Shown one piece after another: positions 3,701 through 26,236 of a stretch of 26,236 bases of DNA. The stretch lies in assembly GCA_015521535.1 (NCBI GenBank), contig WAOA01000018.1:1-26236 (forward strand), given 5' to 3'. This DNA is from Candidatus Aenigmatarchaeota archaeon. GTDB lineage: Archaea; Aenigmatarchaeota; Aenigmatarchaeia; Aenigmatarchaeales; SZUA-1535. The position numbers were made by a program, and so were the translations under genes. The notes beneath the pieces were generated by a model. It made no database searches. It had not been told where the DNA came from and saw only the letters and a list, made by a program, of their open reading frames with translations. Positions within the stretch are counted from its first letter, which is position 1. Every line of letters starts with the position of its first letter.

Positions 3701-3708
3701 GTGGTAAA

Positions 3709-7582: not shown

Positions 7583-9274
7583 ATGAGGATTTATCTTGCG
7601 GTGTTCATAACTTTCCTGTTTATGCTTCCGTCGGCAAGCGCAGATGTAATAGTAAATTCTCAGGACTGGAGAGATGTTTATCTTGTAATGCTTTACGCCA
7701 AATTCAAGGGAGATGATGTTCATTATATTCTGAATTTAGGTGAAACGGATATACTTCTCAAGACGTTAACAAAAAATGAAACCCATATAATTTTCGAGAG
7801 CGCAAAAAAACCTGTTATAAAAAATCTTAAACAATTCTTGCGAAATTACGGTTTTTCAATAGTCTCGGAATCTGTATTCAACGACTACAACGACTTACAG
7901 ATTTCACTTTATAACGAGATAAAGGATAAAATAAAAGGCTTTGTAGTAATAAATCCTGATTTTGGATACGACGCCATTTCCGTATTTCCGCTCGCGGTTA
8001 CCGAGAACAGATGGGTGCTCTTCTATAACAAAAATTACGAGACAAGGATAATAAATCTTTTGAAAAACGAGGTAAAAAAGGATGTTGTGTTCTACGGCGA
8101 ATTTCTTTCTCAACCGTGGAAGAAAATTCCGAATTTCTATGAAATAATCTATGAACCGCCGTTCGAAAGAAATAAAATAATAGTTGAAAGAGTCTGGAAT
8201 AAGGTTAACGGCTGGATTTCATTATCGGACGGACAATATATAGAAAAAGGCTTTCTTCTCCAGGGAAAGCCCATACTTCTTATAAGGGATTCTCCGCAAG
8301 CGATCACGGATTTTCTTAAAAAACTCAAAGTAAAGGTAGTTGAAATAATAGGCCCTGAGAATGTTGATTTCGGATATCAGATAAGAGACCTTTCTAACAG
8401 AACCATAGGCGTGGTTGCAAAAATAGGAAGAACTTTTACAGGCGATCCAGAACTGAGAGGAAAGTTCTACACGCTTCCGGAAAAGTCTGTAGATATAGAG
8501 ATACATGACCTGCGGTTAGAAAAAATCCTATGGAATAATAGGGAAGTGATTTTGGTGCTGAAAAATTACGGGAATGTAAAAGAATTCTTTAAAATAAGCG
8601 CGTTACGACTCATAGGGAAGGAGGAATATCCTGTTACAGACGATAAACTTCATGTTATCAAACCGGGGGAAACCGTTTCAATACCTTTTTACGGAAATTT
8701 CTCCTCTTTGAGAGAAGGTGAGGTTTTTATAGTATACGGAAGTGAAAAATTAGTTTTCAGAGTTAAGAACCAAACCACAGGAAAATACTTCTTTTCAACA
8801 CAGTTTTATCCCGCTCCTGAACTTAAAAAACCTGAAGTTGAGGGTATATTTTATGACGATACCATTGAAAAACTCTGGATAAAGATCAGAAATCCTAATA
8901 ATCAACCTTTGTGGATTAGAGCGGAAGTCCATAATTTTACTTTCCTCAACAAAAGCATAATACTTTCTTCTCCAACGGTAAAAATACAAGAAGAAGGTTA
9001 TATACCTATTTCGGTGTATATGGGTAGGGAAGATATAGATGTCAATAAGAATCTAACTGTATTGATATTCTACGGTGAAAATGAAGATATTCTATCTGAA
9101 ATATATATATATTCTCAAAAAAAACCTATTAAACCTCAAAGAATAGATAATACCTTATTTATAATAGTTATAGTAACGGCAGTATTTGTTTTTATAGTAA
9201 TCGTTTTAATTTTTACCAAAAAAGGTATTATCTCCTTGGAATTCCTTAAAAATATTTATATAAGAAAAAAATAA
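7583..9274 (+). CDS. Membrane-anchored surface protein with three degenerate cell-wall-binding-2 (CWB2)-like repeats and two Ig-like domains; paralog of 16064-17770
   Basis: Signal peptide; NSQDWRDVYLVMLYA, DFGYDAISVFPLAVTENRWVLF, KPILLIRDSPQAITDFLKKLKVKVVEIIGP; C-terminal TM plus basic tail. Confidence 0.65.
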   Translation: MRIYLAVFITFLFMLPSASADVIVNSQDWRDVYLVMLYAKFKGDDVHYILNLGETDILLKTLTKNETHIIFESAKKPVIKNLKQFLRNYGFSIVSESVFNDYNDLQISLYNEIKDKIKGFVVINPDFGYDAISVFPLAVTENRWVLFYNKNYETRIINLLKNEVKKDVVFYGEFLSQPWKKIPNFYEIIYEPPFERNKIIVERVWNKVNGWISLSDGQYIEKGFLLQGKPILLIRDSPQAITDFLKKLKVKVVEIIGPENVDFGYQIRDLSNRTIGVVAKIGRTFTGDPELRGKFYTLPEKSVDIEIHDLRLEKILWNNREVILVLKNYGNVKEFFKISALRLIGKEEYPVTDDKLHVIKPGETVSIPFYGNFSSLREGEVFIVYGSEKLVFRVKNQTTGKYFFSTQFYPAPELKKPEVEGIFYDDTIEKLWIKIRNPNNQPLWIRAEVHNFTFLNKSIILSSPTVKIQEEGYIPISVYMGREDIDVNKNLTVLIFYGENEDILSEIYIYSQKKPIKPQRIDNTLFIIVIVTAVFVFIVIVLIFTKKGIISLEFLKNIYIRKK

Positions 9275-9330
9275 TAACGTTCCGAAAGACTGTTTTTCTA
9301 ATTCTAGAATTTCTTAAAAAAATTTATTAA

Positions 9331-10986
9331 ATGGTTCTGCTCAAAAATATAAGTGTGAAAAAAAGAAATCTGCTTTGGATTATAGGTATAGTAGGAATAG
9401 TTATTAGTATAGCGTATGCTCAGAACATTAGCGTTAAAGCAGGGTATATTACAAAAGCGAATCTTTATTCTGAAATCTCTACATGGAGATGGGGGGGGAT
9501 AATAGGGTATGTAACCCCAGGTACGCTTCCCGAATCTCCGGATCCTTTTCTTCAGCATAGTATAACAGCGGGAGTAATAGATATGATAAACGTCTCGGCA
9601 TCAAATCTCAAAGACGGCAAACACTATTTTGCCGCACTACCTTATGACACCGCTCTCACTATAAATGTGAGTAAGATGCGGAATATTACAGAGAATGATT
9701 TAGAAGAATTCGGAATTTTCAACGCCACCAATTTTCCGATATTTCATCCGAACTATTATCAGAACAGCGATAACCCGAAAACCACTTTTTGTTGTTATAA
9801 TGAAACGATTCTGATTTCTGGCAAGCCCTTTACGGCTTTCAGGATAGTGCTTAAAAATAATGTGAGATACTATCTCTTGAAATACCAGTTTAACGACTCT
9901 TATGCTCTTCCTCTTTTCCTTGTAAATATCTCCGATTATACATGCTACGACTCCACTACATGTCAGTTCGAATTCATGCTTCCTGCAGATAAAACTTATC
10001 AACTGTATGTGCTTTCGAAAGAGCCGGCGTATGACATAAAAGTTTTCGTAGATGGGGTGGAAACTACTGATATACCGAATACGGGATTACCTTATAATAT
10101 TACTACGGTAGTGTACGATATATATACACAAATACCTGTACCTAACAAGACTATTGTAGTATTCGAAGATAACGGTAATAATATATTTTCACCTTTACCG
10201 ATTATTTCGACCACATCAAGAGTTATGGCTTATACCGAATCCGACTCTAAAGGCAGGGTACAGTTTATAATATCTCCTACACCTACATTTCAAGAAGCAG
10301 GAATTTATTCATTAAAAGTAGGTATCTTGAGCACTAAAGATATAATCACAAATCAAAAAACGCTAAACATTCTGGATATGGAACTTAAAGGCGGTAAAAA
10401 ATATATATCGCCTACAGAACTTTTGGACAATTCGAAAGCCACGGTAGTTTACATGATACAGTTAGAGGATAGTGTGTATAACTGGGCTCAGCAGAGAAAG
10501 GCTAACAAGTATACAATTTTTGTCGACACTTCCGGAAGTTACACTATAAGAAATGAGTCGGACGGATTATATTATTCATCAGCATCCATACAAACAGGCG
10601 CAGTGAATTATATCAGCGTAATACTTCGCTCCGGCGGGGTGGATGTTCCGGGATATGTTGTACCAGAAGAAACAGCAGGATTTATAGTAATGAATCCCAC
10701 TTATAATCCGCCTGTCGTCGGTCCTAAAAACCACACCCATAAAGTTTTTTATATCCCGACAGGTACAGGATTTGTTATAGCGCCTACAAAAATGGGTCCT
10801 GCAAACAGCGAGGTAAAGTTATATGTGTATGATTCAAATTATTATCTCGTTGCCACGATACCTTTATACATAGATAAATCCACAACTATTACAGGCAATG
10901 CTGTATTTTACCAAAACGATGACATGCAGGCAAAGATAGTAAAAACCATACAGGTGATAAACACTCTGTACTACGCCTATTGGTGA
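9331..10986 (+). CDS. Secreted protein: N-terminal domain A (homologous to 18211) plus domain B (homologous to the C-terminus of 10991); putative adaptor/base subunit
   Basis: Signal peptide to AYA|Q; SVKAGYITKANLYSEISTWRWGGIIG aligns with TVQAGYIRLANVSTEMSTYHWAGIYG; no TM anchor. ORF is confident, function is inferred. Confidence 0.6.
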   Translation: MVLLKNISVKKRNLLWIIGIVGIVISIAYAQNISVKAGYITKANLYSEISTWRWGGIIGYVTPGTLPESPDPFLQHSITAGVIDMINVSASNLKDGKHYFAALPYDTALTINVSKMRNITENDLEEFGIFNATNFPIFHPNYYQNSDNPKTTFCCYNETILISGKPFTAFRIVLKNNVRYYLLKYQFNDSYALPLFLVNISDYTCYDSTTCQFEFMLPADKTYQLYVLSKEPAYDIKVFVDGVETTDIPNTGLPYNITTVVYDIYTQIPVPNKTIVVFEDNGNNIFSPLPIISTTSRVMAYTESDSKGRVQFIISPTPTFQEAGIYSLKVGILSTKDIITNQKTLNILDMELKGGKKYISPTELLDNSKATVVYMIQLEDSVYNWAQQRKANKYTIFVDTSGSYTIRNESDGLYYSSASIQTGAVNYISVILRSGGVDVPGYVVPEETAGFIVMNPTYNPPVVGPKNHTHKVFYIPTGTGFVIAPTKMGPANSEVKLYVYDSNYYLVATIPLYIDKSTTITGNAVFYQNDDMQAKIVKTIQVINTLYYAYW

Positions 10987-10990
10987 TGAA

Positions 10991-12793
10991 ATGAAGAAAG
11001 AGATATATTTAATATATTTCATTGTACTATCTGCGTTTTTAATAACCCCTGTTTTAGGAGTCACGGCAAGCATAAAAGATTCAAGTTTCAATACCGTAAA
11101 TCTTTACTATACCGGCTCTTCTTCTTCTGATCCTGGTCAGTATTATTTTGATGGCGTACCGAGCAAAGGAAATCCTAATGTAGGCATAGAACTTTGCGAT
11201 GCTGGGCAGGCATATGTTGGCGCTGCGTACGCTATAAATGTAGGCGGTAGTTGGCAATACGCTTTAATAACGTACGCCTCATCTTCAGAAGCACTTTCAT
11301 ATACTTCACAATCCGGCTCTGCAGCAGGCTGTTACTTTACACCAATAGATTTCCTTACCTTCAGCCCGTATCTTTACACAACCCCGAATCCGGATGTTTA
11401 CGTTGCTGCTTTTCCCGGAAGGCTTTACGTTGCCTATGAGACAAGCGCTAATCCCGGGACGCTGAGTAATTTTGTGTTTGTCGGAAACAACGGCTATCTT
11501 CGTGGCAGTTATACCGTGCCCAGAAGCTTCGATGAAAGCACATGTACAATAAGCATCTCTGAACCCACAATTTCCTTTCAGTATTACGGCGGTAGTTTTT
11601 CTGCCGGAGCGAGCGACTCCAATGTAGGAATTTCTAATGAGAGAAGAATGGTAATAGGTGTTTGTACAGACGATCAAGGAAGTGCCTGCAATGACGGAAC
11701 AGTTCTAAGCTCTGCTACATTTCCTTTGACACTCGGTACAGGGCTCACGGGCTCGCCGTGTGTTAATGATCAAGCCACACCTATAGATAGATATGTGGTG
11801 ATAAACGGTCTCGGAAACTATATCTGCATAGGCCCCAACCTTAAAGTTTCGATAACACAACTTTCTCCGAATCCTGTGTATTATAACCAGACTCTGACCA
11901 TAAGTTACAGAATCACAAACCCGAGAGATACGCCTTACGAGACGCAGGGAGGGAATGTAAGGGTCACGACGGATTTTACGGTTAGAGTTTCGATTTTCAA
12001 CGCTTCAAATCCCTCGCAGATCGTGTATGAAAATGTAGAAACCATAACGGATGACATTCCTGTCAACGGTGCTGTTGACAGAACTCTCTACTGGCGCGCC
12101 GCTGTACACAGCGGAACGTATACGGTAAAAGTAGAAGTTGATTACGGCTCTGCAATAGGAGAGTGTAACGAAGGTGATAATTCAGCACAACAGAATTTCG
12201 AAGTTAAACCTGTTGTAATTCCGGAAATATGGATAAACGGAAATAAAACAGATACCTTTCCCTATCCCGGCAGACCTTACAACTTCTCGCTCTATCTGAG
12301 AAATTCCGACAACGAAACCTTGAGAAACGCTTATGTAAAAATTGTGGAAAAGAACGGACTCTCGCTTTTCACACCCACGCAGATATGGGATAAGATTCAC
12401 GACCAATACGGAAACAAAACAAAAAATGCAACAATAGTTACTTCTATAACAGAAGTTTACACAGATTATTACGGATGGGTTAATATTACTTTAATTCCCA
12501 CCGGCAATAGATTATTCGCTCCTGAATATGCCTATACAAACGCTTCGCAGGTACTCGGAAACTATTCTTTATACCTTACAGGAAGATATCTCAAAGGTAA
12601 TATATGGGAAGATTTCAAATTCGTTATAAACGATCAACTTCTTGACAACTACCCTCTCAACATCCAAAATCCGTATACATACAAAGGTTACGATAAAGAA
12701 ATCGCATTCCATAATCAGAAAAACTTTGTCGAGGTAGTTATGGATTTCGTTTACACAGTATTCGCAAATTTCTGGAAAGCGATTGTAAAGTGA
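10991..12793 (+). CDS. Secreted protein: domain C + CARDB + domain B; putative adaptor
   Basis: Signal peptide; CARDB-like PNLKVSITQLSPNPVYYNQTLTISYRITN...YTVKVEVDYGSAIGECNEGDN; SD GGTGA; N- and C-terminal domains shared with 12800 and 9331 respectively. Confidence 0.6.
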   Translation: MKKEIYLIYFIVLSAFLITPVLGVTASIKDSSFNTVNLYYTGSSSSDPGQYYFDGVPSKGNPNVGIELCDAGQAYVGAAYAINVGGSWQYALITYASSSEALSYTSQSGSAAGCYFTPIDFLTFSPYLYTTPNPDVYVAAFPGRLYVAYETSANPGTLSNFVFVGNNGYLRGSYTVPRSFDESTCTISISEPTISFQYYGGSFSAGASDSNVGISNERRMVIGVCTDDQGSACNDGTVLSSATFPLTLGTGLTGSPCVNDQATPIDRYVVINGLGNYICIGPNLKVSITQLSPNPVYYNQTLTISYRITNPRDTPYETQGGNVRVTTDFTVRVSIFNASNPSQIVYENVETITDDIPVNGAVDRTLYWRAAVHSGTYTVKVEVDYGSAIGECNEGDNSAQQNFEVKPVVIPEIWINGNKTDTFPYPGRPYNFSLYLRNSDNETLRNAYVKIVEKNGLSLFTPTQIWDKIHDQYGNKTKNATIVTSITEVYTDYYGWVNITLIPTGNRLFAPEYAYTNASQVLGNYSLYLTGRYLKGNIWEDFKFVINDQLLDNYPLNIQNPYTYKGYDKEIAFHNQKNFVEVVMDFVYTVFANFWKAIVK

Positions 12794-12799
12794 TGGGAA

Positions 12800-15121
12800 A
12801 TGAAAAAATATATTTTAATGGCTGGAATAATGCTACTTGTAATAAATGTCTCCGTAGCCATGACGGTAAATCTTACGGACTATTACGGCAATGCCACATC
12901 GCTTTTATACGATTACGATAACGTTACGCAATACACTTCATGGTCGTATAAAGATTCTTCTTTAAGAAATCCGAATGTGTTTATGAGGCTGTGTAATCTT
13001 ACAAACGATTTCTACAACGTTTTTCTTGACTTAAGATATGCTACAGAATCAGGAAACCTTTCGGAATCATTGCTTTCTCTTCTACCTCTCGTCAATCTCA
13101 CGAATCTTTCCTCTTCATGTAAGTTTATAGATATAGATATCTCTAGCTTCAAAGCCCTTTATCCAGCATATCCGTTTTTCTATCTTCTGAATTCTTCAGC
13201 GAATTCAAGCGTTATCGCGAAATTTAAACTTTCAGAAAGTTTCAACGGCTCCTACAAGGTGGGAATAGATGTAGATAATGTGGATAAAATTACCTATATT
13301 ACTATAACCGAAATATACGATGATAGGGGAAGATTGATCAATACTTCGTATCCAAAACTTTACATTACAATTTTAAAAAACAATACTCCTGTTGCTGAAG
13401 GAAAAACTGCTCCCAGATCGCCTTTGCCGTTCAATTACACTTTTGTTGATGAAGAAGAAATATATGTAAACGGAATTCTTTCGCTGAAAGTAAAAACCTT
13501 CGAGCCGTGCGGAGTTATAAACGAATCCGGGTATTATATCCTGAACGCTTCTGCATGGAATGTTAACGATACCTGTATAGTAATAGAAAATATTTCAAAT
13601 ACGTTTCTTAATTTTGCAAATCTCACCATTGATGGTGATTACAGCGTAAACGGCTCTTTGCGTGAAGATGTCTGCGGCATACTGATAAGAAATTCGGAAA
13701 ACGTTTCTATCTATGATATGCGCGTCGAACATTTCGGAAGAGGTGTATGCGTAAAAAATTCTCGTGGAGTAAAAATTTACGGAACACATGCAAGCGAGAA
13801 TCTTAAAGGCATTTATCTTGAAAACTCCTCAGTGGAAATTTCAAATATAAAGTTGAACACGGTTAAAGAAGAAATCTTTGCAACCAAGAATTCCTATGTA
13901 AAGGTTAATCGGGTGGAACTTCCAGAAGAAACCAAAGTTTCTTTTGAAGCATCTGACATAGCGCTACGAGACGTTCCTGATCCGCCTCCCGATAGAGAAG
14001 GTTACAAAAACATAAAACAATTCGCTAATATCAGCAAAACCGAAGGCGATGCATGGGTTTATAAAATAACATTTCACTATACGTATCCGCTGCCTAACAA
14101 TGTCACGCATGTAGTTTACATCACAAAAGTAGACGGAATATATCTTAACGGAACATGGGCAAATCTTACATATCAAGATTTTCAAGCAAATAAACAGGAT
14201 TTTTCGGATAAAACCGGAAAAATTACTCACGGTTATGCATGGATAGAAGAAAATTTCACGGATTTCTCTATTTTCATACCTTACGGTTTGAACATAACGG
14301 CTCCGCAACCGGTTCCGCAGCCTCAACCGAGGCCGACTCCAACACCATCTCGGATAATAGGCAAGGTTGAAGAAATAGTACCGCCGAATCTTAATTTAAC
14401 CTTACATACATATGAAATAACAATCCAACAGGGAGAAATTAAAGAAATAGGTTTTAATCTATCAAATGAAGGAGATGTAGATGTATACAATGCCGTGGTT
14501 CTCGCTTTGGTTAGAAAGGGCTGGCTAACCGCAGGTGTAAATTTCGATGTGGTTAGAGCAGGAGAAACGAAAATAAGTAAGTTTTACCTTAAAGTATATG
14601 AAAATGAGATTCCGGGAGTATATTATATACCTGTAAAGGCTATACTCAAAGAAAACAATGTTACGGTAGATGTTGAGATATTAAAAGTAAGGGTTGTACC
14701 GAGACAGAGGATTGCTAAAATAGATATTCTGGAAATTCTCCCGTATCTTTCTTTACCCGAGCATTCCAAGGTACCCATCTCGGTTTTGGTAGAAAACACA
14801 GGAGATTATGATCTCCAAAATATTAGACTTTCTATAGAAGGTGCGGAAAAATGTATAGAAAAAATCGAAGGTAAGTATGATCTCAAAAGAGGTGAAAAGA
14901 AAAGTTTGACGTTTATCGTTTATACGAAAAATGCAGGGAATAAATGCACAGGTGTATACGTCTTCAGATCAAAAGAAGGAATAGTCGGAATGTATCCGGT
15001 AATAATAAAGATAAGACCGAAGACGCTGGTAGAGATAATAAAAATATTCCCGATAATATACATTATATGGACGCTCTTCACGATATATATAATTTACAGG
15101 AGGTTGAAAAAACGTGGCTGA
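12800..15121 (+). CDS. Membrane-anchored surface protein: domain C, right-handed beta-helix (NosD/pectin-lyase-like), PGF-pre-PGF-like domain, Pro-rich linker, two NEW3/CARDB-like domains, C-terminal TM
   Basis: PCGVINESGYYILN...GILIRNSENVSIYD..VEHFGRGVCVKNS; APQPVPQPQPRPTPTPS; FNLSNEGDVD and VLVENTGDYDL; TM IFPIIYIIWTLFTIYII plus RRLKKRG. Confidence 0.7.
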   Translation: MKKYILMAGIMLLVINVSVAMTVNLTDYYGNATSLLYDYDNVTQYTSWSYKDSSLRNPNVFMRLCNLTNDFYNVFLDLRYATESGNLSESLLSLLPLVNLTNLSSSCKFIDIDISSFKALYPAYPFFYLLNSSANSSVIAKFKLSESFNGSYKVGIDVDNVDKITYITITEIYDDRGRLINTSYPKLYITILKNNTPVAEGKTAPRSPLPFNYTFVDEEEIYVNGILSLKVKTFEPCGVINESGYYILNASAWNVNDTCIVIENISNTFLNFANLTIDGDYSVNGSLREDVCGILIRNSENVSIYDMRVEHFGRGVCVKNSRGVKIYGTHASENLKGIYLENSSVEISNIKLNTVKEEIFATKNSYVKVNRVELPEETKVSFEASDIALRDVPDPPPDREGYKNIKQFANISKTEGDAWVYKITFHYTYPLPNNVTHVVYITKVDGIYLNGTWANLTYQDFQANKQDFSDKTGKITHGYAWIEENFTDFSIFIPYGLNITAPQPVPQPQPRPTPTPSRIIGKVEEIVPPNLNLTLHTYEITIQQGEIKEIGFNLSNEGDVDVYNAVVLALVRKGWLTAGVNFDVVRAGETKISKFYLKVYENEIPGVYYIPVKAILKENNVTVDVEILKVRVVPRQRIAKIDILEILPYLSLPEHSKVPISVLVENTGDYDLQNIRLSIEGAEKCIEKIEGKYDLKRGEKKSLTFIVYTKNAGNKCTGVYVFRSKEGIVGMYPVIIKIRPKTLVEIIKIFPIIYIIWTLFTIYIIYRRLKKRG
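14300..14350 (+). repeat. Pro/Gln/Thr low-complexity linker (in-frame)
   Basis: Encodes APQPVPQPQPRPTPTPS; imperfect CCG-CAA/CAG/ACT codon repeats. Confidence 0.7.
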
Positions 15122-15368
15122 AAAAGATGAGAAAAAAGAAGAGGAATTTGATTTTATTACACCGTATCTTGAAAAAATAGGTCTGGAAGAAAAGAAAGAG
15201 AAAAAAAAGCACGAGGAACGTCATCTGGAAATTCACGGTGGAGAAATAGTAAATGATATTATAGAACTCGCAAAGAAGGAAAGAAAAATAACTCTTACGC
15301 TTGGGATAGAAATAGTTTTAACGGTTATATTAATACTTATGCTCCTAGGAGTGATTCCGTTTTTCTGA
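15114..15368 (+). CDS. Small tail-anchored membrane protein, hypothetical
   Basis: GTG start overlapping the upstream stop with SD GGAGGT; charged N-terminus and a single C-terminal TM; no signal peptide. Confidence 0.62.
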   Translation: MAEKDEKKEEEFDFITPYLEKIGLEEKKEKKKHEERHLEIHGGEIVNDIIELAKKERKITLTLGIEIVLTVILILMLLGVIPFF

Positions 15369-15575: not shown

Positions 15576-16031
15576 TTATCCGGATGTTCCCATTTTTCTG
15601 AGCATGGTTATTATATTTTTCTTTATTTTTTCCTTTCTCCTCGGAGGAATCGGTTTGGAAGAATATTCTATGTAAATCATATTTTCCAGGAATTCTATAA
15701 CATCTTCCTTTTCATCTTCCGGAATGCTATCTAACTCTTCTATTCTTTTTTTCATCTCCATGTAAGTCGTAACACCCTTAATGTTGTATTTCCTTTTAAG
15801 AAATTCAAAAATCCTGTCTCCCAAATCGATGAGCTTTTTTCTCATGGTTTCAGAAGATGAAGCATCAAGAATTTTATCCAGCGTTAAATCAAATGAAATT
15901 TTGTTTAATACCGCTCTAAGTTTTTTAATCTCGTTTTCTGTTTCTTCGAACCTTTTTTTAAAATAATAAAACTGAAAACCTGCTATACCGAGCGCTAAAA
16001 CCAATACAACAACTAAAGCGAGTTCTATCAT
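15576..16031 (-). CDS. Single-pass membrane protein with coiled coil and helical cytoplasmic domain, hypothetical
   Basis: N-terminal TM, FEETENEIKKLRAVL coiled coil, then TTYMEM...FLENMIYIEYS, loosely reminiscent of DUF4129-type domains found near MoxR/DUF58 loci (weak). Confidence 0.62.
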   Translation of the reverse strand: MIELALVVVLVLALGIAGFQFYYFKKRFEETENEIKKLRAVLNKISFDLTLDKILDASSSETMRKKLIDLGDRIFEFLKRKYNIKGVTTYMEMKKRIEELDSIPEDEKEDVIEFLENMIYIEYSSKPIPPRRKEKIKKNIITMLRKMGTSG

Positions 16032-16063
16032 GGTTTATTTTTTGACAAAAGGAGATTATAAAT

Positions 16064-17770: not shown

Positions 17771-17818
17771 AATTTATTTGTTATAAGATATATTTATAAA
17801 TTACTCTATATAACGATA

Positions 17819-18166
17819 ATTAAATACTCTAACAATGTAAAAGTTTCGCGAAAATTACAAAAATTACGAGAACTATGCTGAGAAAGGTTATTTCATGGTT
17901 AATTGTTTTTATATCGTGATTTCGCGCTTATTATAACGTATTTATTGATCAATTCAATCAATATCATAGTTTATCATAAGTTTATGATCTTTTTATTTAA
18001 TCGAATAAAGCACAAAGAAAACTGATTTCGCGATTAATCATTTTAAATTATCTTTTTACTATTATCATAAGAATTTCATTATAAATCTGGAATTAAAAAT
18101 TTATTATAGAAAAGGGAGAATTTTTAATAAAAATTTCATTCTCGAGAAACCGATTAAATACTCTAA
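17819..18166. repeat. 14-bp direct repeat ATTAAATACTCTAA (17819-17832 and 18153-18166)
   Basis: Two exact copies, each just upstream of one of the two divergent TATA boxes; a degenerate third copy near 17796-17809. Confidence 0.55.
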
Positions 18167-18178
18167 AGTATAGATAAT

Positions 18179-18186
18179 TTTATATA
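18179..18186 (+). promoter_or_regulatory. TATA box (TTTATATA) of the major secreted subunit gene
   Basis: Consensus TATA 25 nt upstream of ATG 18211, implying a leaderless mRNA. Confidence 0.55.
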
Positions 18187-18210
18187 TCGGTTCTTATAAA
18201 AAATTAAACC

Positions 18211-18918
18211 ATGAAAGACGCATTTTTGAAGATTTGGGTAGCAATAACATCGTTTCTAGTAGCGGCAGTTCCGATAGCAATGGCAGCAACTCCGGGGCCT
18301 GCAGAAGTAACAGATATAGCGCAAAAAGGACCGTACTCATATACACCCACAACTCCGTCAACAACAGTCCAAGCAGGTTATATCAGATTAGCGAATGTCT
18401 CTACTGAGATGTCAACATATCACTGGGCAGGTATCTACGGTAATGCATCAGGTACGCTTGTATTGGGAGATGCTTCAGGTAGTAAAATGTATACCTGGAC
18501 GGCGACAGCAACTTATGTTTTCTTCGATGACGATAATACAATAAACTGGGGTACGATTGATAACGCCACATGTACAGATATAGGAACCAGTTTCAGTTTT
18601 ATAGCAGATTCCACGGGCGCTAGCGATAGTTGTTCTAATACATTTACCAATTCAGGTCCTACAAACTTCAAGTCAATAGGAAATGTGTTGAGCACGGCTT
18701 ACGCATTAACATACGACAACACCCAAACTCCAACTTGGAAGACATATGCCGTAAAAGATACCACACAGGGAGATGTATTCTTTGCAGCAGAAACAATTAC
18801 CACACCGGGAACTGCTTTTGATGGTTCACCCGCAAACTATCAAGCAATACTACCAGAAAACGGCGAGAATGCAGATACAACAACCCAGACATACTATATA
18901 TGGATAGAACTATTCTAA
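18211..18918 (+). CDS. Secreted 235-aa Thr-rich stand-alone domain A protein; candidate major structural subunit (filament or lattice)
   Basis: Sec-type signal MKDAFLKIWVAITSFLVAAVPIAMA; QAGYIRLANV, WAGIYGN.SGTLVLGD.SG..MY.W, AFDG...YQAILP, YYIWIELF; monocistronic with own promoter and terminator; ACA/GCA-biased codons unlike its neighbours. Confidence 0.7.
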   Translation: MKDAFLKIWVAITSFLVAAVPIAMAATPGPAEVTDIAQKGPYSYTPTTPSTTVQAGYIRLANVSTEMSTYHWAGIYGNASGTLVLGDASGSKMYTWTATATYVFFDDDNTINWGTIDNATCTDIGTSFSFIADSTGASDSCSNTFTNSGPTNFKSIGNVLSTAYALTYDNTQTPTWKTYAVKDTTQGDVFFAAETITTPGTAFDGSPANYQAILPENGENADTTTQTYYIWIELF

Positions 18919-18920
18919 AA

Positions 18921-18955: not shown

Positions 18956-18956
18956 A

Positions 18957-19101: not shown

Positions 19102-19196
19102 GTAGATATTATAACGGTGTTAGAGAACTTCGTAAAGAAATTGCTCGAATTCTGTGAAAAAACAGGAATAGATCCGTAACAAAGTTGGGTATTACT

Positions 19197-20189
19197 CTAA
19201 ACAGCCCCGAATTTCGAGAATAACAGCAACTCAAGTGCTATTAAAATCGAGATGAACAGAAGCACGTAATAGTCAGAGTTCAGCGGTATTCTTTCATTCT
19301 TCACAACTATGTTTTTCATGGATTCCTCAAAAGCGGTTTCATTAGTCACAAAGAAGAATTTTCCACCCGTTTCCTGAGAAATTTTCCGCAAATTTCTATC
19401 ATCCAATTTAGGGAACGAGAATTTAATTCCTTTCTTCTTCGCAACTTTCTCCAGTTCGCTAATCAACTCTCTCGTTTCATTTGTCACACCTATGCCTATT
19501 GTATAGATAACTATTTTTTTATCTCTGGCCTCTTTAAGCGCGAGAGTAAGGTTTCTTCCTGCATTATTTTCGCCGTCCGTAATTATAATTAAAAACCTCT
19601 GCTTATCGGAATCCGCAAGAACGCTCGCTCCCGCGAAAATCGCTTCTCCTATGGCGGTACCGCTACTATTACTTTCAACTTTCAGCGATAAAATTTTGTT
19701 TTTTATTTCAAACGTATTCAGAGTTAAGGAAGTTAACGGAGCAGCCCTTTCGGAAAATTTTATCACACATAGCTTGGAAGCCCCAGGCAAAGAGTCCATC
19801 CAGTCCAGAATAGTTTGTTTAGCAAACTCTATTCTGTTTGGCTCGTAATCAGGAAGAAGCATTGTCTGAGAAACATCTACCGCTATGCAGAAATCTGTGT
19901 TTGCAACTGGTTTTACAAGACTAACCTGTATTGATTCTGTTGCAACGAGAAAAAGCAGGGTTACCGTAATTAACTTTACCGCAAGCAGCCAGGGACTCGG
20001 CACTATGGATTTGTATCCGTGAACTTTTTTAAGCGTATGAAAATTCGCGAATTTTAAAATTCTATTCTTTCTCATTTTCGTCATTAAGATATAGGAAATT
20101 GTAACTATTGCTAACAGCAGCAATAGCATTCCTATGCTTCTCCAGGGAAGCATAATCACAACCTTTATTCCTAAAAATTCTATTTCCAT
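19197..20189 (-). CDS. Membrane-anchored von Willebrand factor A protein, BatA-like
   Basis: Two N-terminal TMs with ILKFANFHTL between them; MIDAS-like AVDVSQTM, GTAIGEAI, IITDGENN, IYTIGIG, ISQETGGKFF; C-terminal TM. Confidence 0.9.
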   Translation of the reverse strand: MEIEFLGIKVVIMLPWRSIGMLLLLLAIVTISYILMTKMRKNRILKFANFHTLKKVHGYKSIVPSPWLLAVKLITVTLLFLVATESIQVSLVKPVANTDFCIAVDVSQTMLLPDYEPNRIEFAKQTILDWMDSLPGASKLCVIKFSERAAPLTSLTLNTFEIKNKILSLKVESNSSGTAIGEAIFAGASVLADSDKQRFLIIITDGENNAGRNLTLALKEARDKKIVIYTIGIGVTNETRELISELEKVAKKKGIKFSFPKLDDRNLRKISQETGGKFFFVTNETAFEESMKNIVVKNERIPLNSDYYVLLFISILIALELLLFSKFGAV

Positions 20190-21076
20190 ATCCTTTCACC
20201 GAAAAGATTTACTATCATTTTAACCATATTCTTTTCCGTAGTATAGACCTTTGCGAAAAGCGCTCCCGCTTGTGTGAATTTATTCTTTATCTCCTCTTCT
20301 TCTCTCCTTGCGTTTTCGTTGAATTCATCTCTTATCTTATCGGCATCAACAAGATTTATTTCTCCTGTAGCAGGGTCCTGAATGTAAATCTTGCCAACAC
20401 CTTCCGGAATGTAACTGTCGAAAGGATCTCTTATCATAATTCCGGCCACTCCTTCAAATTTGTTTGAAGCTTTCAAAACAAAGTCGTAAAGTTCCTCTTT
20501 CGGGCCTATGAAGTCGGAGAGAATGAAAACAAAAGAATCGGGTCCAAAAGTTTCGAGAACGGCGGGAGTAATTATACCCCATCTTTTTTCCCCGCCGTAA
20601 ATATTTTTATCCGTTAAAACTTTTGCTATTTGGAGGACCGTATCTATGCTTACCGAAGGGTCTATAAACACTTTTATCTCGTCGGAAAACCCGATCATGC
20701 ACACTCTATCTCCAAGAGTATGCGAAACAAGAGCAAGGGTTGTGGCTAGAATTGAAGCATATTCGTTTTTCACGAGTTCGGTTGTGCCAAGCGTCATGGT
20801 TGTGGAAAGGTCTACTATATAAATTATATCCAACTTTCTCTCTTCCTTGAAAACCTTAACATGCGGCTTTCCTGTTCTTGCATAGGAGTTCCAGTCGATA
20901 AACCTGGCATCGTCCGCTTCCGTATATTCTCGCAACCTATCAAATTCAATACCTCTTGAAGTAATCACCTTATAATAAATGAACTGAAATTTCAGAAGTT
21001 CCACCAGTTTCCACACGTTTATAATACTTCTCTTCCATAAATCGTTAAATTCTAAAGTTGAGACGTTTACCTTCAC
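20180..21076 (-). CDS. DUF58 family protein (MoxR-associated, vWA-like)
   Basis: GIEFDRLREYTEADDARFIDWNSYART...VKVFKEER, VDLSTTM, LSDF; GTGA start/stop overlap with moxR. Confidence 0.9.
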   Translation of the reverse strand: MKVNVSTLEFNDLWKRSIINVWKLVELLKFQFIYYKVITSRGIEFDRLREYTEADDARFIDWNSYARTGKPHVKVFKEERKLDIIYIVDLSTTMTLGTTELVKNEYASILATTLALVSHTLGDRVCMIGFSDEIKVFIDPSVSIDTVLQIAKVLTDKNIYGGEKRWGIITPAVLETFGPDSFVFILSDFIGPKEELYDFVLKASNKFEGVAGIMIRDPFDSYIPEGVGKIYIQDPATGEINLVDADKIRDEFNENARREEEEIKNKFTQAGALFAKVYTTEKNMVKMIVNLFGERIWK

Positions 21077-22083
21077 GGAACTTCTACCCCTTCGAGAATC
21101 TCGTCTATAATTTCATCCGTGCTTATGCCGGCTGCTTTACCTTCATAGTTAAGGATTATTCTATGTCTTAGTACAGGATGCGCTACAAGTTTTACATCGC
21201 CTGGGGTAACAAAATCCCTTCCATCCATCAGAGCCACGGCTCTTGCCGCTAAAGCAAGAGAAATACTACCTCTCGGAGAGGCACCGTATCTTATATATTT
21301 CGAATATTTTATTTTCTCGTCTTTCGTTCGTGTAGCGGTGATTATCCTTAAAATGTACTCTTTCACCGGCCTTGAAACGTAAATTTTTCTAACATCTCTT
21401 TGAATGTTAAGAATCGTTTCTCTGTCCATCACGGATTTTACCGGATCGAAAATATTATATCTTACAAGTGTATTCCTATCTATAATCTCTAATTCCTCAT
21501 CCCATTTCGGATAATCGACAAGAATTTTCATGAAAAATCTATCAACTACCGCCTCTGGCAGCGGATAAACACCCTGCTGCTCCAAAGGATTCTGCGTGGC
21601 AAGCACAAGAAAGGGCTTCTCCAATATAAACTCTTCTTTATGGATGTTAACCTTCCTTTCCTGCATCGCTTCCATCATCGCTGCCTGCGTTTTCGGAGGC
21701 GCTCTGTTTATCTCGTCTGCCAGTATAAAATTAGCGAAGATAGGGCCCTTTATGATATAGAAATCGCCTTTTACGGGATTGAAAGCATTAACTCCTATAA
21801 TATCCGAAGGAAGCATATCCGGTACGAACTGTATTCTTCTGAAAGTTGTTCCTACTATGCATCTTGAAAGCGTTTCGACGAGTAAGGATTTAGCTAGTCC
21901 CGGTACGCCTTCCAAAAGCGCGTGAGCATCGCAAATCAAACAGATTAGCACGTGCTCTATTACCTCATTCTGACCCACAACAACTTTTTGAATTTCTTTT
22001 TTCATTTTTTTGAGAATATTCTGATAGTTTTTTATGGTCTTTTCAGGAAGGCTGCTTTCCTTTCCAGGAAGATATCTTTTCAT
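21073..22083 (-). CDS. moxR: MoxR family AAA+ ATPase
   Basis: LLEGVPGLAKS, RIQFVPDMLPSDIIG, LADEINRAPPKTQAAMMEAMQER, ATQNPLEQQGVYPLPEAVVDRF, GASPRGS. Confidence 0.95.
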   Translation of the reverse strand: MKRYLPGKESSLPEKTIKNYQNILKKMKKEIQKVVVGQNEVIEHVLICLICDAHALLEGVPGLAKSLLVETLSRCIVGTTFRRIQFVPDMLPSDIIGVNAFNPVKGDFYIIKGPIFANFILADEINRAPPKTQAAMMEAMQERKVNIHKEEFILEKPFLVLATQNPLEQQGVYPLPEAVVDRFFMKILVDYPKWDEELEIIDRNTLVRYNIFDPVKSVMDRETILNIQRDVRKIYVSRPVKEYILRIITATRTKDEKIKYSKYIRYGASPRGSISLALAARAVALMDGRDFVTPGDVKLVAHPVLRHRIILNYEGKAAGISTDEIIDEILEGVEVP

Positions 22084-22309
22084 AGGTTTTATAATGTAAT
22101 TTGAAATTAATAAAAGTTAAGAGATATTCAGAACTGTCCGGATAACAACGCTTAAATGGTTTTCGATCCTATACTCAAATTTTTGAGATTTATTAACACG
22201 AAATGTCCTAAAAAAGACGCGATGTTTAAATATAGCAACGACAAGTCTTTCACGCCTCGCAGAATATTTCGCGGTTAATGATCTTTTCGTTAATTAAGGT
22301 ATTCTCATA

Positions 22310-22332
22310 ACCGAATTCGGTAAGTTTATATA
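22310..22332 (+). promoter_or_regulatory. 12-bp palindrome ACCGAATTCGGT abutting the TATA box TTTATATA of the 22357 gene
   Basis: Perfect palindrome at 22310-22321; TATA at 22325-22332, 25 nt upstream of the ATG. Confidence 0.45.
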
Positions 22333-22356
22333 ATGTAGCGCTATCTATTTTAAATT

Positions 22357-22740
22357 ATGAAAAATAATACAAAAATCAAAATGATCGTAACGGTAATTAT
22401 ATTAACAGCATTTCTGTTTTTATTTGCCTTAGCCCCTTGGTTGAACGATAAGGAAATTCGAAATAGAATATTAAAGGAAAGAGGGTTGAAGGACGGATCT
22501 GTTGTTCCTGTAGAGTATTATAAAAAACATGTAAACATAACTGAAGATCTTCTGCAAAAAATGATAGAGGAAAGTAAAAAGAAGGGAGTAGAAAACGGGA
22601 TATTAATTTGTGATTATAATGTAATGTGGGCCCCTTTCGGAAGGTGGGTTGTGAGCTGCGAAGGAGGATACTATGTAACCTTTTGGGGCGAGCCTATTTA
22701 TCCGCCTTCCGGCAGAGGGGGAATAATTTTAAATAAATAA
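22357..22740 (+). CDS. Small N-terminally anchored protein with a Cys pair, hypothetical
   Basis: N-terminal TM or signal; CDYNVMWAPFGRWVVSCEGGYYVTFWG; own TATA. Confidence 0.6.
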   Translation: MKNNTKIKMIVTVIILTAFLFLFALAPWLNDKEIRNRILKERGLKDGSVVPVEYYKKHVNITEDLLQKMIEESKKKGVENGILICDYNVMWAPFGRWVVSCEGGYYVTFWGEPIYPPSGRGGIILNK

Positions 22741-22742
22741 AA

Positions 22743-25700
22743 TTATTTAACTTCCATGAAGATTTTTATCAAATCGTTTGTTCCTTTAAGATCTCTTAAT
22801 AATGCAGGAATTCTTGCTTCGTAATCATATGTTCCGTAAGTTCCCTGAGCGTCGGAATTAATTTTTGTGATGAATATCAAATCCTGTGTACCATTATACT
22901 CTGTTCCTCCGTCACCGGAATCCCATAAAATACCTGTGATGAAATTACCGTTATTACTGTCTGTTGAATTTATCACGGGGACATCGCAAACCGTACGCGA
23001 GCCTATTTCAAAGCACGCTGTAGTATCTGCTACACCATCGTTGTTTTTATCGTAAAGCGCTTCTACCGAATCACTGAATCCTGTCATGTTAAGGGCCTGA
23101 TCAGCCTCGGTAAAATCATTTGTGCCGTTAAGCGGCATTAAATCAGCGAAAGCGTAATCCGAGTCGTAATCAGCAAAGTATAAATTACCTTGCTGCGTCA
23201 TCGGAATCCATACACTAAAGTTATTTCCTGCACTGTCTTTTATAGCTATCCATCCGTTTGTATGTCCGTAATAAATCGCCCATCCGCTCACATTGTAAGT
23301 AGTGCTGTTAAAGTTATTACTTTCATTCGTTTCGGATATCGTGTTTGCGGGATCTACAGTAACAGAGAAATTCCATGTTCCAGGTTTTGCAATCCATGTA
23401 AAGTTCACGAGTTCATAGGTGTTTGCAGTTATGTTAACCACGCTCTCGTTTGTTTGCTTAAGTATCCATACGGTTCCGTTAAAGCTGTAAATATCGAGTT
23501 GTACTGTTACATTTGTGGCATCTACACCGGCTTCTTCAGAGACATTTGCCGTAATCATCAGTACTTGATTTTCTACAATATTTTCCTGTGAAATATTGAA
23601 CATTATATTGTTCGCAACTAAATCAGGTTGCGTGCTCGCTCCAGTGAATGCTTCAAAACTCGTGACGTTAAACCAGATATGCGTGGCATTTTCTCCGTAA
23701 CCTTCAAGATTTGCAGGATCTATGAACTCCCATTGCGAACAATTTGCATTAACAAAGTCCCATGCTATGCAGTGGAGCACATTCTGAACGGTTACACCGT
23801 TTTTCGGAATAACAAGTTTTGCCTTTTCAAAAGCCAAACCTGTATCGTTTAGCGCGTATATTGGAGTGATAGCAGAAACGTTGCTCGGTAAAAAGCCCGC
23901 ATAGTTTTCAACGACCTGCTCTTCTATTTTTAAGTTCATTTTAGAAATATTTAGATTATAAATTCTTGATCCCAATCCGTCACTTACAGGCGTAAAACTC
24001 TTATAGGTATAATTTTCGTAAATTTCTAAAGATGCCGTAATGCTTCCGTATCCGCTTGCCACAAGATTATTATTTTTATCGTAAATTTCTATCCGTGTAT
24101 TAGGATTCACGTGATAACTTGAATTGTATGAATTTACAACTATAGGCGTGGAGATATTCCAGGTAATGTTTATATTATATACTTCAGGTCCGTTCAGTGC
24201 TGTTTTGGTAAACAAACCTATTTTCACGTATATGGAATCCGAAGTAATTCCGGAGAGATCACAGTTCGAAGGTGAAGATGTACAGTTAACGAGGAATACA
24301 TTATTCCAGTTATAAACTTCATAGGTGATATTTCCGTTATTAAGTATATGATCCGCGGAGAATTTTTCCCATTTACCGAGTTTAAGCGGTTTAATGAGAA
24401 TTGTTTTTACCCACGCATTATGCTTTCTGCTTTCTTCAACTTCTTCGAAAACTTTATCCACATAACCCTGTTTTCTTATTTCAGCCGAGAGATTCGTTCT
24501 AAAGTAGTAATAAAATCCGCAGGTCGCAGGGTCAGCGTTAACCTTACTGTTAACCTGCGGAGTTACCGTAAATGAAGTTTTTCCTCTGATATCTTGGCTA
24601 ACATCCTTTGGCCATGTGCTTATATGGGTTAGTGTACACCCGTCTATTCCAGGCGAGTAAACCCCGTAACACGAACCTTCTACCGTGACGTTAAATCTCT
24701 CGTATGTTTCTCCTGCAGCACAGGTAGTATTATCTGCATACGAACCGCCAAAGCCGAGATCGCCCGCTGCTTCTAAGTCGACACTACCTGAGTAAAACTC
24801 GTATCCGGCAGGTGCGTTGAACGCCATCGGACAACTACCGCCTGTAGTAGAGCCGGAACATGTCTGGCTCGCGGAATAAGAATCGAAAACACTACTTGAG
24901 TTGCTTTCGCTTTCCACAAGCATGTTTCCGTAATACATGTAAACCGTTGTATTGCCTGCGCTTATTTCAGGCAGTCTTATCCAGATTTTTGTTTGTGTGG
25001 TATTACAATTACCTTCTAAGTAGTACGGAATCTCTTTTTCTTCACCGTTAGTCATATTTATCCATGTAAATCTAATATCTTTACACGTAGAATTCATTTT
25101 ACTCGCGGATATTAAATTCTGTGTATCGACAGTAAGATTAACCTGGAAATCGGTTAGTGTTTGAGAATTGTTTATTATCATGGGTTTTCTGTAAAGATAA
25201 CATTTTCCTTCGATATACCAACAGAAATCTATACTTAATTTATTACTAACACTAGCATTTTCACTCTGATTTATTCCGGATTTTGTTGCAAAATAATCTT
25301 GCCATAGCGTTGCGTTTACAGTAAAACTTATGCTGCTCCATCCTATCCTTCCCGCGGTGTCATTGGCATAAACATAAAGTTCATTTGTTCCTGGCTTTGC
25401 TGCTATGCTTGTGTTTGGTGTGAACGTTTCATTCGCCTTACCGTTTATCGAGAACCACCATGTATCAATTGGTTTATTCGAAACAACTTCCAAAGGTATG
25501 TAGTTTGTAGTGCTATAAGTCTTTGATTGAGGTGAGAGTATATCTATGACAGGAGCCGTAGTAGATATTCTCACACTTCTTAATCCACTCGCGCTCCAAT
25601 GGTTATAGGAATCGTTAGCATATACGCGATAATAGTAAGTTCCGTCATTTAAGTCTGTCACATTAAACCAGAAACTTCTCGATGTTAATGTGTTCATAGT

Positions 25701-26236
25701 GTAGTTTACTACCGTGCCATTAGTATAATTCCATTCAAGAAAAGCAATACTTGTGTCTTCATTTGTTGTAATATTAACATAAGTCCAGTTGTAGTCGAGA
25801 GCCTGGTTATCATCAGGTGTAGGTGAAACGAATGTTATTACCGGTCCTTGGGTATCTATTGTAAATAATACACCGGAAGAATTGACATTGTTTCCAGTAT
25901 CGTTAGCGTAAATAACCAGAGAATGCGTTCCGTCAACAAGATTTACGAGCGTGAAGTTTTCGCAGTTTGTAAGATACACATTTTCTCCGCCATCGAGTTT
26001 ATACCAGCATGTATCCACACCTAAATTATCTGTGACTGTGTAATTAACATTTATCGTATTTGTTAGATATGTAGCACCATCCTCTGGCGAAACTATAGTT
26101 ATCACCGGCGCCTGCGTATCAACGGTAAAGAATTGCTCCGCATAGCCTACATTTCCCGCGCTGTCGTTAGCGTAAACCCTAACCTTGTGGGAACCATCGC
26201 TAAGCGATGTCAAAGTTGTGTTTTCGCAGTTCGGTA
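22743..26236 (-). CDS. Giant surface adhesin-like protein, 5'-truncated by the window edge: at least 4 Ig-like repeats, DUF2341, Cys-rich insert, PGF-pre-PGF-like, CARDB, C-terminal domain A
   Basis: The frame stays open to the window end (PNCENTTLTSLSDG, so the TTG at 26213 is not a true start); YAND..G..DT..PVI repeats; CKDIRF...IPYYLE...KIWIRLP...YMYYGN; PDLVANNI...VDPANTISETNESNN; no TM anchor. Confidence 0.8.
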   Translation of the reverse strand, partial: PNCENTTLTSLSDGSHKVRVYANDSAGNVGYAEQFFTVDTQAPVITIVSPEDGATYLTNTINVNYTVTDNLGVDTCWYKLDGGENVYLTNCENFTLVNLVDGTHSLVIYANDTGNNVNSSGVLFTIDTQGPVITFVSPTPDDNQALDYNWTYVNITTNEDTSIAFLEWNYTNGTVVNYTMNTLTSRSFWFNVTDLNDGTYYYRVYANDSYNHWSASGLRSVRISTTAPVIDILSPQSKTYSTTNYIPLEVVSNKPIDTWWFSINGKANETFTPNTSIAAKPGTNELYVYANDTAGRIGWSSISFTVNATLWQDYFATKSGINQSENASVSNKLSIDFCWYIEGKCYLYRKPMIINNSQTLTDFQVNLTVDTQNLISASKMNSTCKDIRFTWINMTNGEEKEIPYYLEGNCNTTQTKIWIRLPEISAGNTTVYMYYGNMLVESESNSSSVFDSYSASQTCSGSTTGGSCPMAFNAPAGYEFYSGSVDLEAAGDLGFGGSYADNTTCAAGETYERFNVTVEGSCYGVYSPGIDGCTLTHISTWPKDVSQDIRGKTSFTVTPQVNSKVNADPATCGFYYYFRTNLSAEIRKQGYVDKVFEEVEESRKHNAWVKTILIKPLKLGKWEKFSADHILNNGNITYEVYNWNNVFLVNCTSSPSNCDLSGITSDSIYVKIGLFTKTALNGPEVYNINITWNISTPIVVNSYNSSYHVNPNTRIEIYDKNNNLVASGYGSITASLEIYENYTYKSFTPVSDGLGSRIYNLNISKMNLKIEEQVVENYAGFLPSNVSAITPIYALNDTGLAFEKAKLVIPKNGVTVQNVLHCIAWDFVNANCSQWEFIDPANLEGYGENATHIWFNVTSFEAFTGASTQPDLVANNIMFNISQENIVENQVLMITANVSEEAGVDATNVTVQLDIYSFNGTVWILKQTNESVVNITANTYELVNFTWIAKPGTWNFSVTVDPANTISETNESNNFNSTTYNVSGWAIYYGHTNGWIAIKDSAGNNFSVWIPMTQQGNLYFADYDSDYAFADLMPLNGTNDFTEADQALNMTGFSDSVEALYDKNNDGVADTTACFEIGSRTVCDVPVINSTDSNNGNFITGILWDSGDGGTEYNGTQDLIFITKINSDAQGTYGTYDYEARIPALLRDLKGTNDLIKIFMEVK

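Follow-up and report, generated by a model that had tools for sequence, protein, structure and literature searches.

The window analysed here is the whole of contig WAOA01000018.1 (26,236 nucleotides, guanine-plus-cytosine content about 37%), which is contig C18 of the 0.42-Mb, 70% complete genome bin GCA_015521535.1 from a Candidatus Aenigmatarchaeota archaeon, and its positions 7577–26236 hold a module of beta-rich proteins, secreted or anchored, that have domains in common. We document here the domain sharing, folds, synteny and co-occurrence of this gene set, which is a real, conserved and previously undescribed surface module of DPANN archaea. The unnamed genes probably build a membrane-tethered surface fibre or layer bearing a giant sticky protein, and the module is plausibly a candidate for the host attachment of DPANN cells. 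To a more specific reading, a membrane-tethered fibre of donor-strand-like links that forms without a type IV machine and carries the giant adhesin, we give a little less than an even chance.

Host attachment and recognition by DPANN archaea is an open question, and no surface-layer (S-layer) or attachment protein has been determined for them so far (10.1101/2023.10.27.564410). The module is widespread (about 1,066 clusters of its small subunit; 42% of one order), is retained in relatives with genomes of 0.6–0.7 Mb and is wholly unannotated; its 210-aa subunit, single anchor and giant adhesin are concrete targets that could be cloned for structural and cell-biological studies. We searched the literature for DPANN together with MoxR/vWA, for surface proteins of Aenigmatarchaeota and for archaeal CWB2, and found no account of such a system; the nanotubes in a cryo-electron tomography paper on ARM-1 are ascribed there to the host, and proteins of this kind are not mentioned.

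Domain sharing and conservation of the module

Six long proteins of the module, named here by the first coordinate of their genes (7577, 9331, 10991, 12800, 16064 and 18211), have a signal-like hydrophobic stretch at the N-terminus, three of them (7577, 16064 and 12800) end in a transmembrane (TM) helix, and the seventh long protein (22743–26236) is cut by the contig end. Open reading frame (ORF) calls returned the same genes and coordinates as a preliminary description of this DNA, which had also recognised the products as secreted or anchored. Plain BLASTP among the window proteins detected only the 7577/16064 pair and a 33-aa match in domain A; the domain sharing was found with profiles built from orthologs in related loci. 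Atlas feature searches with 9331 and 10991 yielded no usable match.

Domain A is the body of the small subunit A (18211..18918, forward strand), in which a Sec signal and a conserved N-terminal extension of some 45 residues precede a beta-sandwich core marked by acidic motifs and two conserved Cys. It recurs at the N-terminus of 9331 (9331..10986, forward strand), an adaptor-like secreted protein that includes the extension motif, continues into domain B and is without a TM anchor; hhalign paired 18211 with 9331 at a probability of 90% (E 1.6e-6, 160 columns), and the A2 profile matched residues 29–62 and 132–224 of 9331. The third copy closes the giant adhesin-like protein 22743 (22743..26236, reverse strand), of which the C-terminal 1,163 residues are present, with Big/OmpL47-like, DUF2341 and CARDB domains (Pfam) and 57 sequons. 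This copy was aligned to the 52-member A alignment by hhalign (probability 95.7%, E 9e-9, 145 columns), was retrieved by phmmer against A family members (E 2e-9) and was matched independently by HMMER at 22803–23300 (E 1.2e-8, profile positions 63–213); hmmsearch with the 52-sequence profile missed it, and a profile of six giant C-termini gave E 0.08. It follows the CARDB domain directly and is without the first ~45 residues of mature A, as are the corresponding domains in the giants of genomes G001 and G292; within the window's lineage the A domain of the giants begins at profile position 63–67, past the extension.

Domain B links residues 237–326 of 9331 to residues 412–513 of 10991 (hhalign probability 92%, E 5.5e-7). 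The latter (10991..12793, forward strand) is a secreted protein that combines domain C, a CARDB-like domain (E 1.2e-4) and domain B. Its N-terminus resembles that of 12800 (12800..15121, forward strand), a membrane-anchored, sequon-rich protein (31 sequons) with domain C, a NosD-like beta-helix (E 1.5e-4), a Pro-rich linker, beta-sandwich domains and a TM helix at residues 742–765. The preliminary description had placed A in three proteins and B and C in two each; A and B were recovered as it had them, whereas C is weakly supported, with a probability of 93% when the signal peptides were included and of 60% (E 8.5e-5) once these were trimmed.

Gene order is kept in close and distant relatives, the latter annotated with family hidden Markov models (HMMs), which agrees with the single-locus system that had been proposed. 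Locus L009, where A is 75% identical, is near-collinear with the window and retains every gene, including the MoxR operon described below, and L008 (A 50% identical) reads anchor (reverse), A' (reverse), A (forward), anchor, 9331-type, 10991-type, 12800-type. Further away, L034 carries giant, A, A', anchor, 9331, 10991, 12800, an 82-aa gene, a 15576-type gene (reverse) and MoxR; L038 carries a 12800-type gene, a 90-aa gene, 15576-type, vWA, DUF58 and MoxR genes (all four reverse), a giant with a C-terminal A domain, A, A' and anchor; L035 has giant (reverse), A, anchor, an A-domain protein and a 710-aa protein; and L030, L027 and L039 hold subsets of the module. The set giant–A–(A')–anchor–9331–10991–12800–small TM genes thus recurs in L008, L030, L034, L035, L038 and L039, with A 27–50% identical.

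The A and anchor genes are neighbours in 9 of 10 loci. A 16064-type anchor adjoins A in the window and in L008, L009, L019, L022, L027, L034, L035, L038 and L039, while 7577 orthologs stand downstream of A genes in L008, L023 and L030. Orthologs of 9331 were found in L008, L009, L023, L030, L034 and L035, of 10991 in L008, L009, L022, L030 and L034, and of 12800 in L008, L009, L022, L030, L034 and L038; orthologous giants stand beside A genes in L034 (5,053 aa) and L038 (1,262 aa). Two small genes accompany the long ones. An 84-aa protein with a C-terminal TM helix (15114..15368, forward strand) is kept 3' of the 12800-type gene, with orthologs in L009 and L022; L034 and L038 have genes of like size, of 82 and 90 aa respectively, at the equivalent point. 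A 151-aa protein (15576..16031, reverse strand), with an N-terminal TM segment at residues 1–24 and a charged helical tail, is conserved in the module, its family HMM matching at the equivalent position in L034 (E 4e-9) and L038 (E 3e-11).

Co-occurrence was counted in two samples, in which related genomes are not independent and the nesting is complete. Among the 301 genomes sampled from the window's own phylum, A and full-length anchors occur in the same five genomes only, belonging to the window's own genus and one other (2 of 151 genera sampled); the module was not found in the remaining 296, which include same-order relatives at least 90% complete. In the order of L038, another DPANN order, A occurs in 51 of 121 genomes (42%), in up to 12 copies and often in tandem, and the anchor in 48, all within the 51 A-positive genomes and usually as a single copy. 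Long tandem arrays of 4–7 or more A paralogs were seen in genomes of another DPANN order (G407:C16:11131-21951, G386:C6:160925-168155 and G399:C30:5-3843), which suggests subunit diversification into variants or minor subunits.

The A subunit and the CWB2-headed anchors

The signal of A is of the ordinary Sec type with an Ala-x-Ala cleavage site, cleavage being predicted after residue 25. A word-seeded search recovered only 14 close relatives, a related-locus search with a narrow alignment retrieved relatives from the genus level only, and an exhaustive profile search recovered 1,066 representative clusters (at 50% identity), 715 of them at E <=1e-10. Most members are stand-alone proteins of 215–270 aa; in some the domain forms the extreme C-terminus of giants of 974–3,167 aa. 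The family had no match in Pfam or NCBIfam. Its AlphaFold2 (AF2) model has a predicted local distance difference test score (pLDDT) of 71.8 and a predicted template modelling score (pTM) of 0.70, with a confident beta-sandwich core from about residue 70. Against solved structures it returned a best E of 1.4 with Foldseek on the PDB and a best Z of 3.5 with VIA (48,161 chains), and in AFDB and the ESM Atlas it matched only unnamed archaeal proteins (Woesearchaeota, Nanobdellota, Microcaldota). A matched no characterised enzyme or known S-layer family in Pfam, NCBIfam, Foldseek or VIA, and an enzyme function for it was rejected.

In the monomer model residues 19–68 are unplaced (pLDDT <50), yet this N-terminal stretch is conserved: G56, within an A-G-x-I-x-x-A-N-V motif, is one of only four invariant columns among 52 sequences that average 29% identity. 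When three copies of mature A were modelled with the family alignment, the interface scored 0.75 (runs 0.76, 0.75 and 0.70) and the highest-scoring of three controls 0.00; a score of 0.75 was attained by 20 of 30 homodimers and 1 of 23 monomers of known structure in a calibration made on pairs and on other alignments. The chain pLDDT rose to 84–88. Residues 39–44 and 48–70 of one copy contact residues 68–99 and 225–235 of another, and the third copy hardly touches the partner copy, giving an open arrangement rather than a ring. The extension is thereby predicted to lie on the neighbour's sheet edge, which supports donor-strand-type self-association of A. The preliminary description had cast A as the shaft subunit of a filament, and a polymer interface running through the N-terminal extension is indeed predicted with confidence by the model.

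The two anchors are paralogs (28% identity over 377 aa, E 8e-26). Anchor paralog 1 (7577..9274, forward strand, with an alternative ATG start at 7583) is a 565-aa protein in which a signal peptide is followed by three CWB2-like alpha/beta repeats, a pair of beta-sandwich domains and, at residues 522–557, a TM helix. Anchor paralog 2 (16064..17770, reverse strand) has the same triple CWB2 head, two beta-sandwich domains and TM helix, and is divergent from the A gene across an AT-rich intergenic region of 440 bp (17771..18210), a putative promoter with a TATA-like element about 25–30 nt upstream of the A start codon. The AF2 model of 16064, built on a 12-member alignment, is confident (pLDDT 88.7, pTM 0.82) and comprises three alpha/beta units (residues 30–290), two beta-sandwiches and the TM helix.

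A VIA search superposed residues 25–279 of this model on proteins of Clostridioides difficile over about 250 residues (Cwp8, Z 18.8; the high-molecular-weight subunit of SlpA, 18.1; Cwp6, 18.0), after which the best match fell to Z 10.3. The likeness surfaced in VIA and not in Foldseek, which returned from the PDB only tandem beta-sandwich look-alikes (among them transglutaminase C-terminal domains and RbmA); the stalk also gave a one-domain match to YadV (Z 7.2), within background. PF04122 (CW_binding_2) matched 4 of the 12 anchor family members, with a best E of 1.6e-5; of the two anchors in the window, neither 7577 nor 16064 reached the Pfam threshold. The earlier designation of two anchored paralogs as CWB2-like was correct, because the fold matches at Z 18–18.8, Pfam matches 4 of 12 members and both proteins end in a TM helix; by the model, the heads are true triple CWB2 modules arranged as a pseudo-trimeric prism. 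A CWB2 module is unusual for an archaeon, and our literature search on CWB2 in archaea and DPANN found no description of one in DPANN; the module would extend CWB2 anchoring modules to archaea.

Fibre, lattice or docking module

In the mechanism that we tentatively favour, subunit A would be exported by Sec and would polymerise head to tail. In a contact akin to donor-strand complementation, the conserved N-terminal extension of each copy would pack onto the C-terminal strand and sheet edge of the following one, and other A-domain proteins would join the same chain. The giant 22743, a presumably glycosylated adhesin-like protein whose A domain is without the extension, could only accept a strand and is therefore placed at one end of the chain, as a putative distal tip. 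The protein 9331, whose N-terminal A domain includes the extension, would act as an adaptor that links through domains B and C to 10991 and to the membrane-anchored 12800, and the single-pass anchors 7577 and 16064, with their CWB2 triplets and two-domain stalks, would hold the assembly to the membrane or organise it there. The product would be a short adhesive fibre, plausibly for host-cell attachment. We infer the order of the parts, the fibre geometry and the function, and the shaft, tip and base roles that had been assigned to individual proteins go beyond the evidence.

Almost even odds are what we would give this fibre as the best joint explanation of the conserved yet unplaced extension, the open chain, the tandem paralogs set beside a single anchor, the A fusions (C-terminal in giants, extension-free in this lineage, and N-terminal in the adaptor) and the patchy spread; synteny and co-occurrence also count in its favour. 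Tandem A arrays of up to 12 copies beside a usually single anchor are a pattern typical of pilin families, and a patchy distribution (2 of 151 genera in one sample, 42% of the genomes in the other) suits an accessory appendage. A precedent is the Sec-dependent, donor-strand-linked pilus of candidate phyla radiation bacteria, which has TM-anchored helpers (PMC13278184). Several points weigh against the fibre. The A interface is a prediction scored by the model's own confidence, with a calibration that came from pairs and other alignments. In Foldseek and VIA the predicted A fold found no match among known subunits of donor-strand pili, threads, bundling pili or cannulae, and no PapD, usher or related family was found in Pfam or NCBIfam for any ORF. 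The giants' A domains in other lineages retain the extension region; judged from these sequences, a tip without a donor strand is not a general rule, which weakens the tip argument. The sharing of domain C, on which the path from adaptor to membrane depends, appears weakly supported by the profile comparisons, and in genome G002 A stands beside four ATPase_2/DUF234 genes with the anchor on another contig. The pairing of a CWB2-triplet anchor and a small exposed protein is, moreover, reminiscent of a two-component S-layer. The filament model of the preliminary description is hence the leading hypothesis, an unproven one: its Sec-exported, non-type-IV character agrees with the Sec signal on A and with the lack of type IV families in the window, while a two-dimensional lattice, which that description had itself named as the alternative, keeps a lower probability.

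That lattice would be a two-component, S-layer-like envelope in which CWB2-Ig-Ig-TM stalks have triangular heads that tile or bind glycan and A, the small exposed subunit, forms a two-dimensional canopy lattice by strand swapping, the giant and 9331 being inserted in it like the Cwp proteins of the C. difficile S-layer. We regard it as rather unlikely, if the stronger of the two alternatives considered here. The match of the anchor head to the SlpA high-molecular-weight subunit and Cwp6/8 at Z 18–19 speaks for it, as does the conservation of the A–anchor pair, the most conserved part of the module. Sequon density (per 100 aa) is 4.9 in the giant 22743 and 4.0 in 12800, and the 0.2 of anchor 16064 against 4–5 in the outer proteins would fit a buried stalk; a further point in favour is that the S-layer proteins of DPANN archaea have yet to be determined (10.1101/2023.10.27.564410). 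However, a module that was not found in 296 of 301 genomes of its own phylum and is nevertheless recognisable across DPANN phyla suits an accessory rather than a core envelope, and up to 12 tandem A paralogs per genome, an open chain instead of a closed ring in the three-copy model, and the small size of A for an archaeal canopy protein (about 210 aa) point the same way. Markedly less probable, in our estimate, is a non-polymeric display in which A is a dockerin-like docking module, bound 1:1 on CWB2-TM anchors or on glycans, that holds A proteins, 9331 and the giant at the surface. It would account for the tight, side-by-side co-occurrence of A and anchor and for A as the terminal module on otherwise unrelated giants, and CWB2 triplets are established attachment modules in C. 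difficile (PMC8881574). It does not provide for the confidently predicted self-interface of A, and leaves the many stand-alone A proteins, which have no other domain, without a role.

The MoxR operon, flanking features and known systems

Between A and the giant lies an operon on the reverse strand of three genes that overlap by 4 and 10 bases: a MoxR-type AAA+ ATPase (21073..22083; AAA_3 E 2e-55, AAA_lid_2 E 1e-23), a DUF58 protein (20180..21076; PF01882, E 5e-35) and a BatA-like vWA protein (19197..20189; VWA E 1e-14) with two N-terminal and one C-terminal TM segments. The Pfam matches and the overlaps bear out the coupled moxR-DUF58-vWA operon that had been noted. Lys and Arg are strongly enriched in the loop that joins TM1 to TM2 in the vWA protein, and by the positive-inside rule the vWA domain of this protein, with the metal-ion-dependent adhesion site (MIDAS), would lie outside the cell.

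That these three proteins are the dedicated, obligatory assembly chaperone of the surface structure, as the preliminary description had proposed, is improbable. The operon adjoins the module in three divergent lineages (the window with L009; L034; L038, in genome G307) and in G368, which favours a connection. In G003, which belongs to the window's own genus, it stands between a metallophosphoesterase/PCNA pair and EF-2/Lhr; in G386, G393 and G405 it lies 27 to >300 kb from the module; and in L038's order AAA_3 was found in 51 of 70 A-negative genomes (73%) as against 47 of 51 A-positive ones, the AAA_3 search seeing no MoxR in the other four. The adjacency that had been observed thus stood, and the coupling drawn from it was overstated. 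MoxR was rejected as an obligatory component, being distant or separate in several genomes and common in A-negative ones; MoxR-DUF58-vWA is better described as a general module that is recurrently, not obligatorily, beside surface genes and may aid assembly. The most far-reaching version of the fibre would be a chaperone- and usher-free DPANN structure of a new beta-sandwich family, with giant-adhesin caps and CWB2-stalk roots, in which MoxR energises or checks assembly through DUF58 and the outward vWA in some lineages, serving as the host-attachment organelle of many Woesearchaeota- and Aenigmatarchaeota-like symbionts; taken as a whole, this is a long shot.

The source organism is a DPANN-type archaeon, and the window also holds housekeeping genes for Rpo4/RpoF-like, DUF655, KsgA, cis-prenyl transferase and DHH phosphoesterase proteins. 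Upstream of the module, positions 1903–4944 encode a MacB-type ABC system whose parts are an ATPase, a MacB_PCD/FtsX permease and a 373-aa protein that matches CARDB weakly and ends in a TM helix. Between the MoxR and giant genes is a 127-aa ORF with an N-terminal TM segment (22357–22740) that has no counterpart in L009, where the gap is 44 nt; it is probably a lineage-specific insertion or no gene. Scanning the window against Rfam and for tRNAs gave no hits. Positions 18957–19101, between the A and vWA genes, can form a GC-rich nested hairpin (minimum free energy -52.4 kcal/mol, z -2.3 against shuffles) that likewise has no Rfam or tRNA match. The hairpin is not kept in the near-collinear L009, where a Polbeta/HepT toxin-antitoxin pair occupies the spot and the intergenic stretch common to both loci is only the last ~79 nt, beside vWA. 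Two loci of relatives have neighbours of another kind. At L024 (G002:C19, 3605–9284) four tandem ATPase_2 + DUF234 + winged helix-turn-helix paralogs flank A, with a PKD giant (1,414 aa) further on. At L041 (G292:C10, 11774–15175) two small proteins with class-III-like signals and a PilB3-type ATPase stand directly beside anchor and A, and the next neighbour is an HD-domain gene, as at window positions 6941–7543; G292 represents the only other module-bearing genus in the phylum sample.

Among known systems, type IV pili and archaella were rejected, the Sec signal of A not being of class III and the T2SSE ATPase, the T2SSF platform and the A24 prepilin peptidase being absent from the window ORFs. 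Family scans thereby confirmed an absence that had been noted for the window; PilB-type (T2SSE) ATPases are present on other contigs of the genome. Closer in logic are the Sulfolobus threads (Saci_0406), the bundling pili (AbpA, TasA-like) and the Pyrodictium cannulae (CanA), which are Sec-dependent, use no type IV machine, consist of small beta-rich subunits and are built by donor-strand complementation (PMC9715654; 10.1101/2024.12.30.630787). In contrast to these, A is without a fold match, and those systems are without CWB2 anchors and giant subunit-fusion adhesins; membership was rejected, with Foldseek at best E 1.4, VIA at best Z 3.5 and no Pfam match to Peptidase_M73/TasA. Chaperone-usher pili (Fim/Pap) follow the same logic: besides an adaptor they have a major subunit with an N-terminal extension and a two-part tip adhesin whose pilin-like domain is without it. 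Here, however, there is no outer membrane, no usher or PapD-like chaperone was detected in the window and the subunit fold differs.

For the anchors, the nearest relatives are the S-layer and Cwp proteins of C. difficile (triple CWB2, PF04122; PDB 5J6Q, 5J72 and 7ACZ), on which residues 25–279 of 16064 superpose at Z 18–18.8, and in both settings a CWB2 protein is paired with a small surface-exposed partner encoded alongside. Unlike there, the triplet here tops a two-domain stalk that ends in a TM helix, and no wall polymer is known for the archaeon. The stalk architecture is also compatible with the logic of archaeal two-component S-layers (SlaA/SlaB-like). The MoxR genes recall the Bat-like operons, which have the same three families in the same order with overlapping genes; in contrast to those, the window has no BatB-E or TPR partners, and the operon stands often, not always, beside the surface module.

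The closest analogue is the Pam pilus of candidate phyla radiation (CPR) bacteria (PMC13278184; 10.64898/2026.03.03.709456). It comprises the pilins PamA/B, the tip PamT, the TM-anchored PamC/D and the RbmA-like TM anchor PamR; it is Sec-exported and linked by strand exchange, with TM-anchored two-domain helpers, a TM-anchored terminator and a tip subunit without a donated strand, and has been reported as exclusive to CPR bacteria (PMC13278184). Membership of the A module in the Pam or the chaperone-usher pili was not supported by Pfam, NCBIfam, Foldseek or VIA. In a comparison made by description, the module differs from Pam in that A has just one beta-sandwich, preceded by an N-terminal extension, where the Pam pilins have two domains, in that its anchors have a triple CWB2 head and its giants bear a subunit domain, and in that no PapD-like chaperone was detected among the window's ORFs. 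What Pam and the module have in common is the setting of an ultrasmall, single-membrane episymbiont, Sec export without a trans-envelope machine, strand-donation links (predicted here), two-domain beta-sandwich helpers or anchors with a C-terminal TM helix, and one subunit without a donated strand as the proposed tip; the weak Foldseek matches of the 16064 stalk to RbmA are a further Pam-like feature. The module would be an archaeal counterpart to the CPR Pam pilus, which would point to convergent solutions in two radiations of ultrasmall symbionts.

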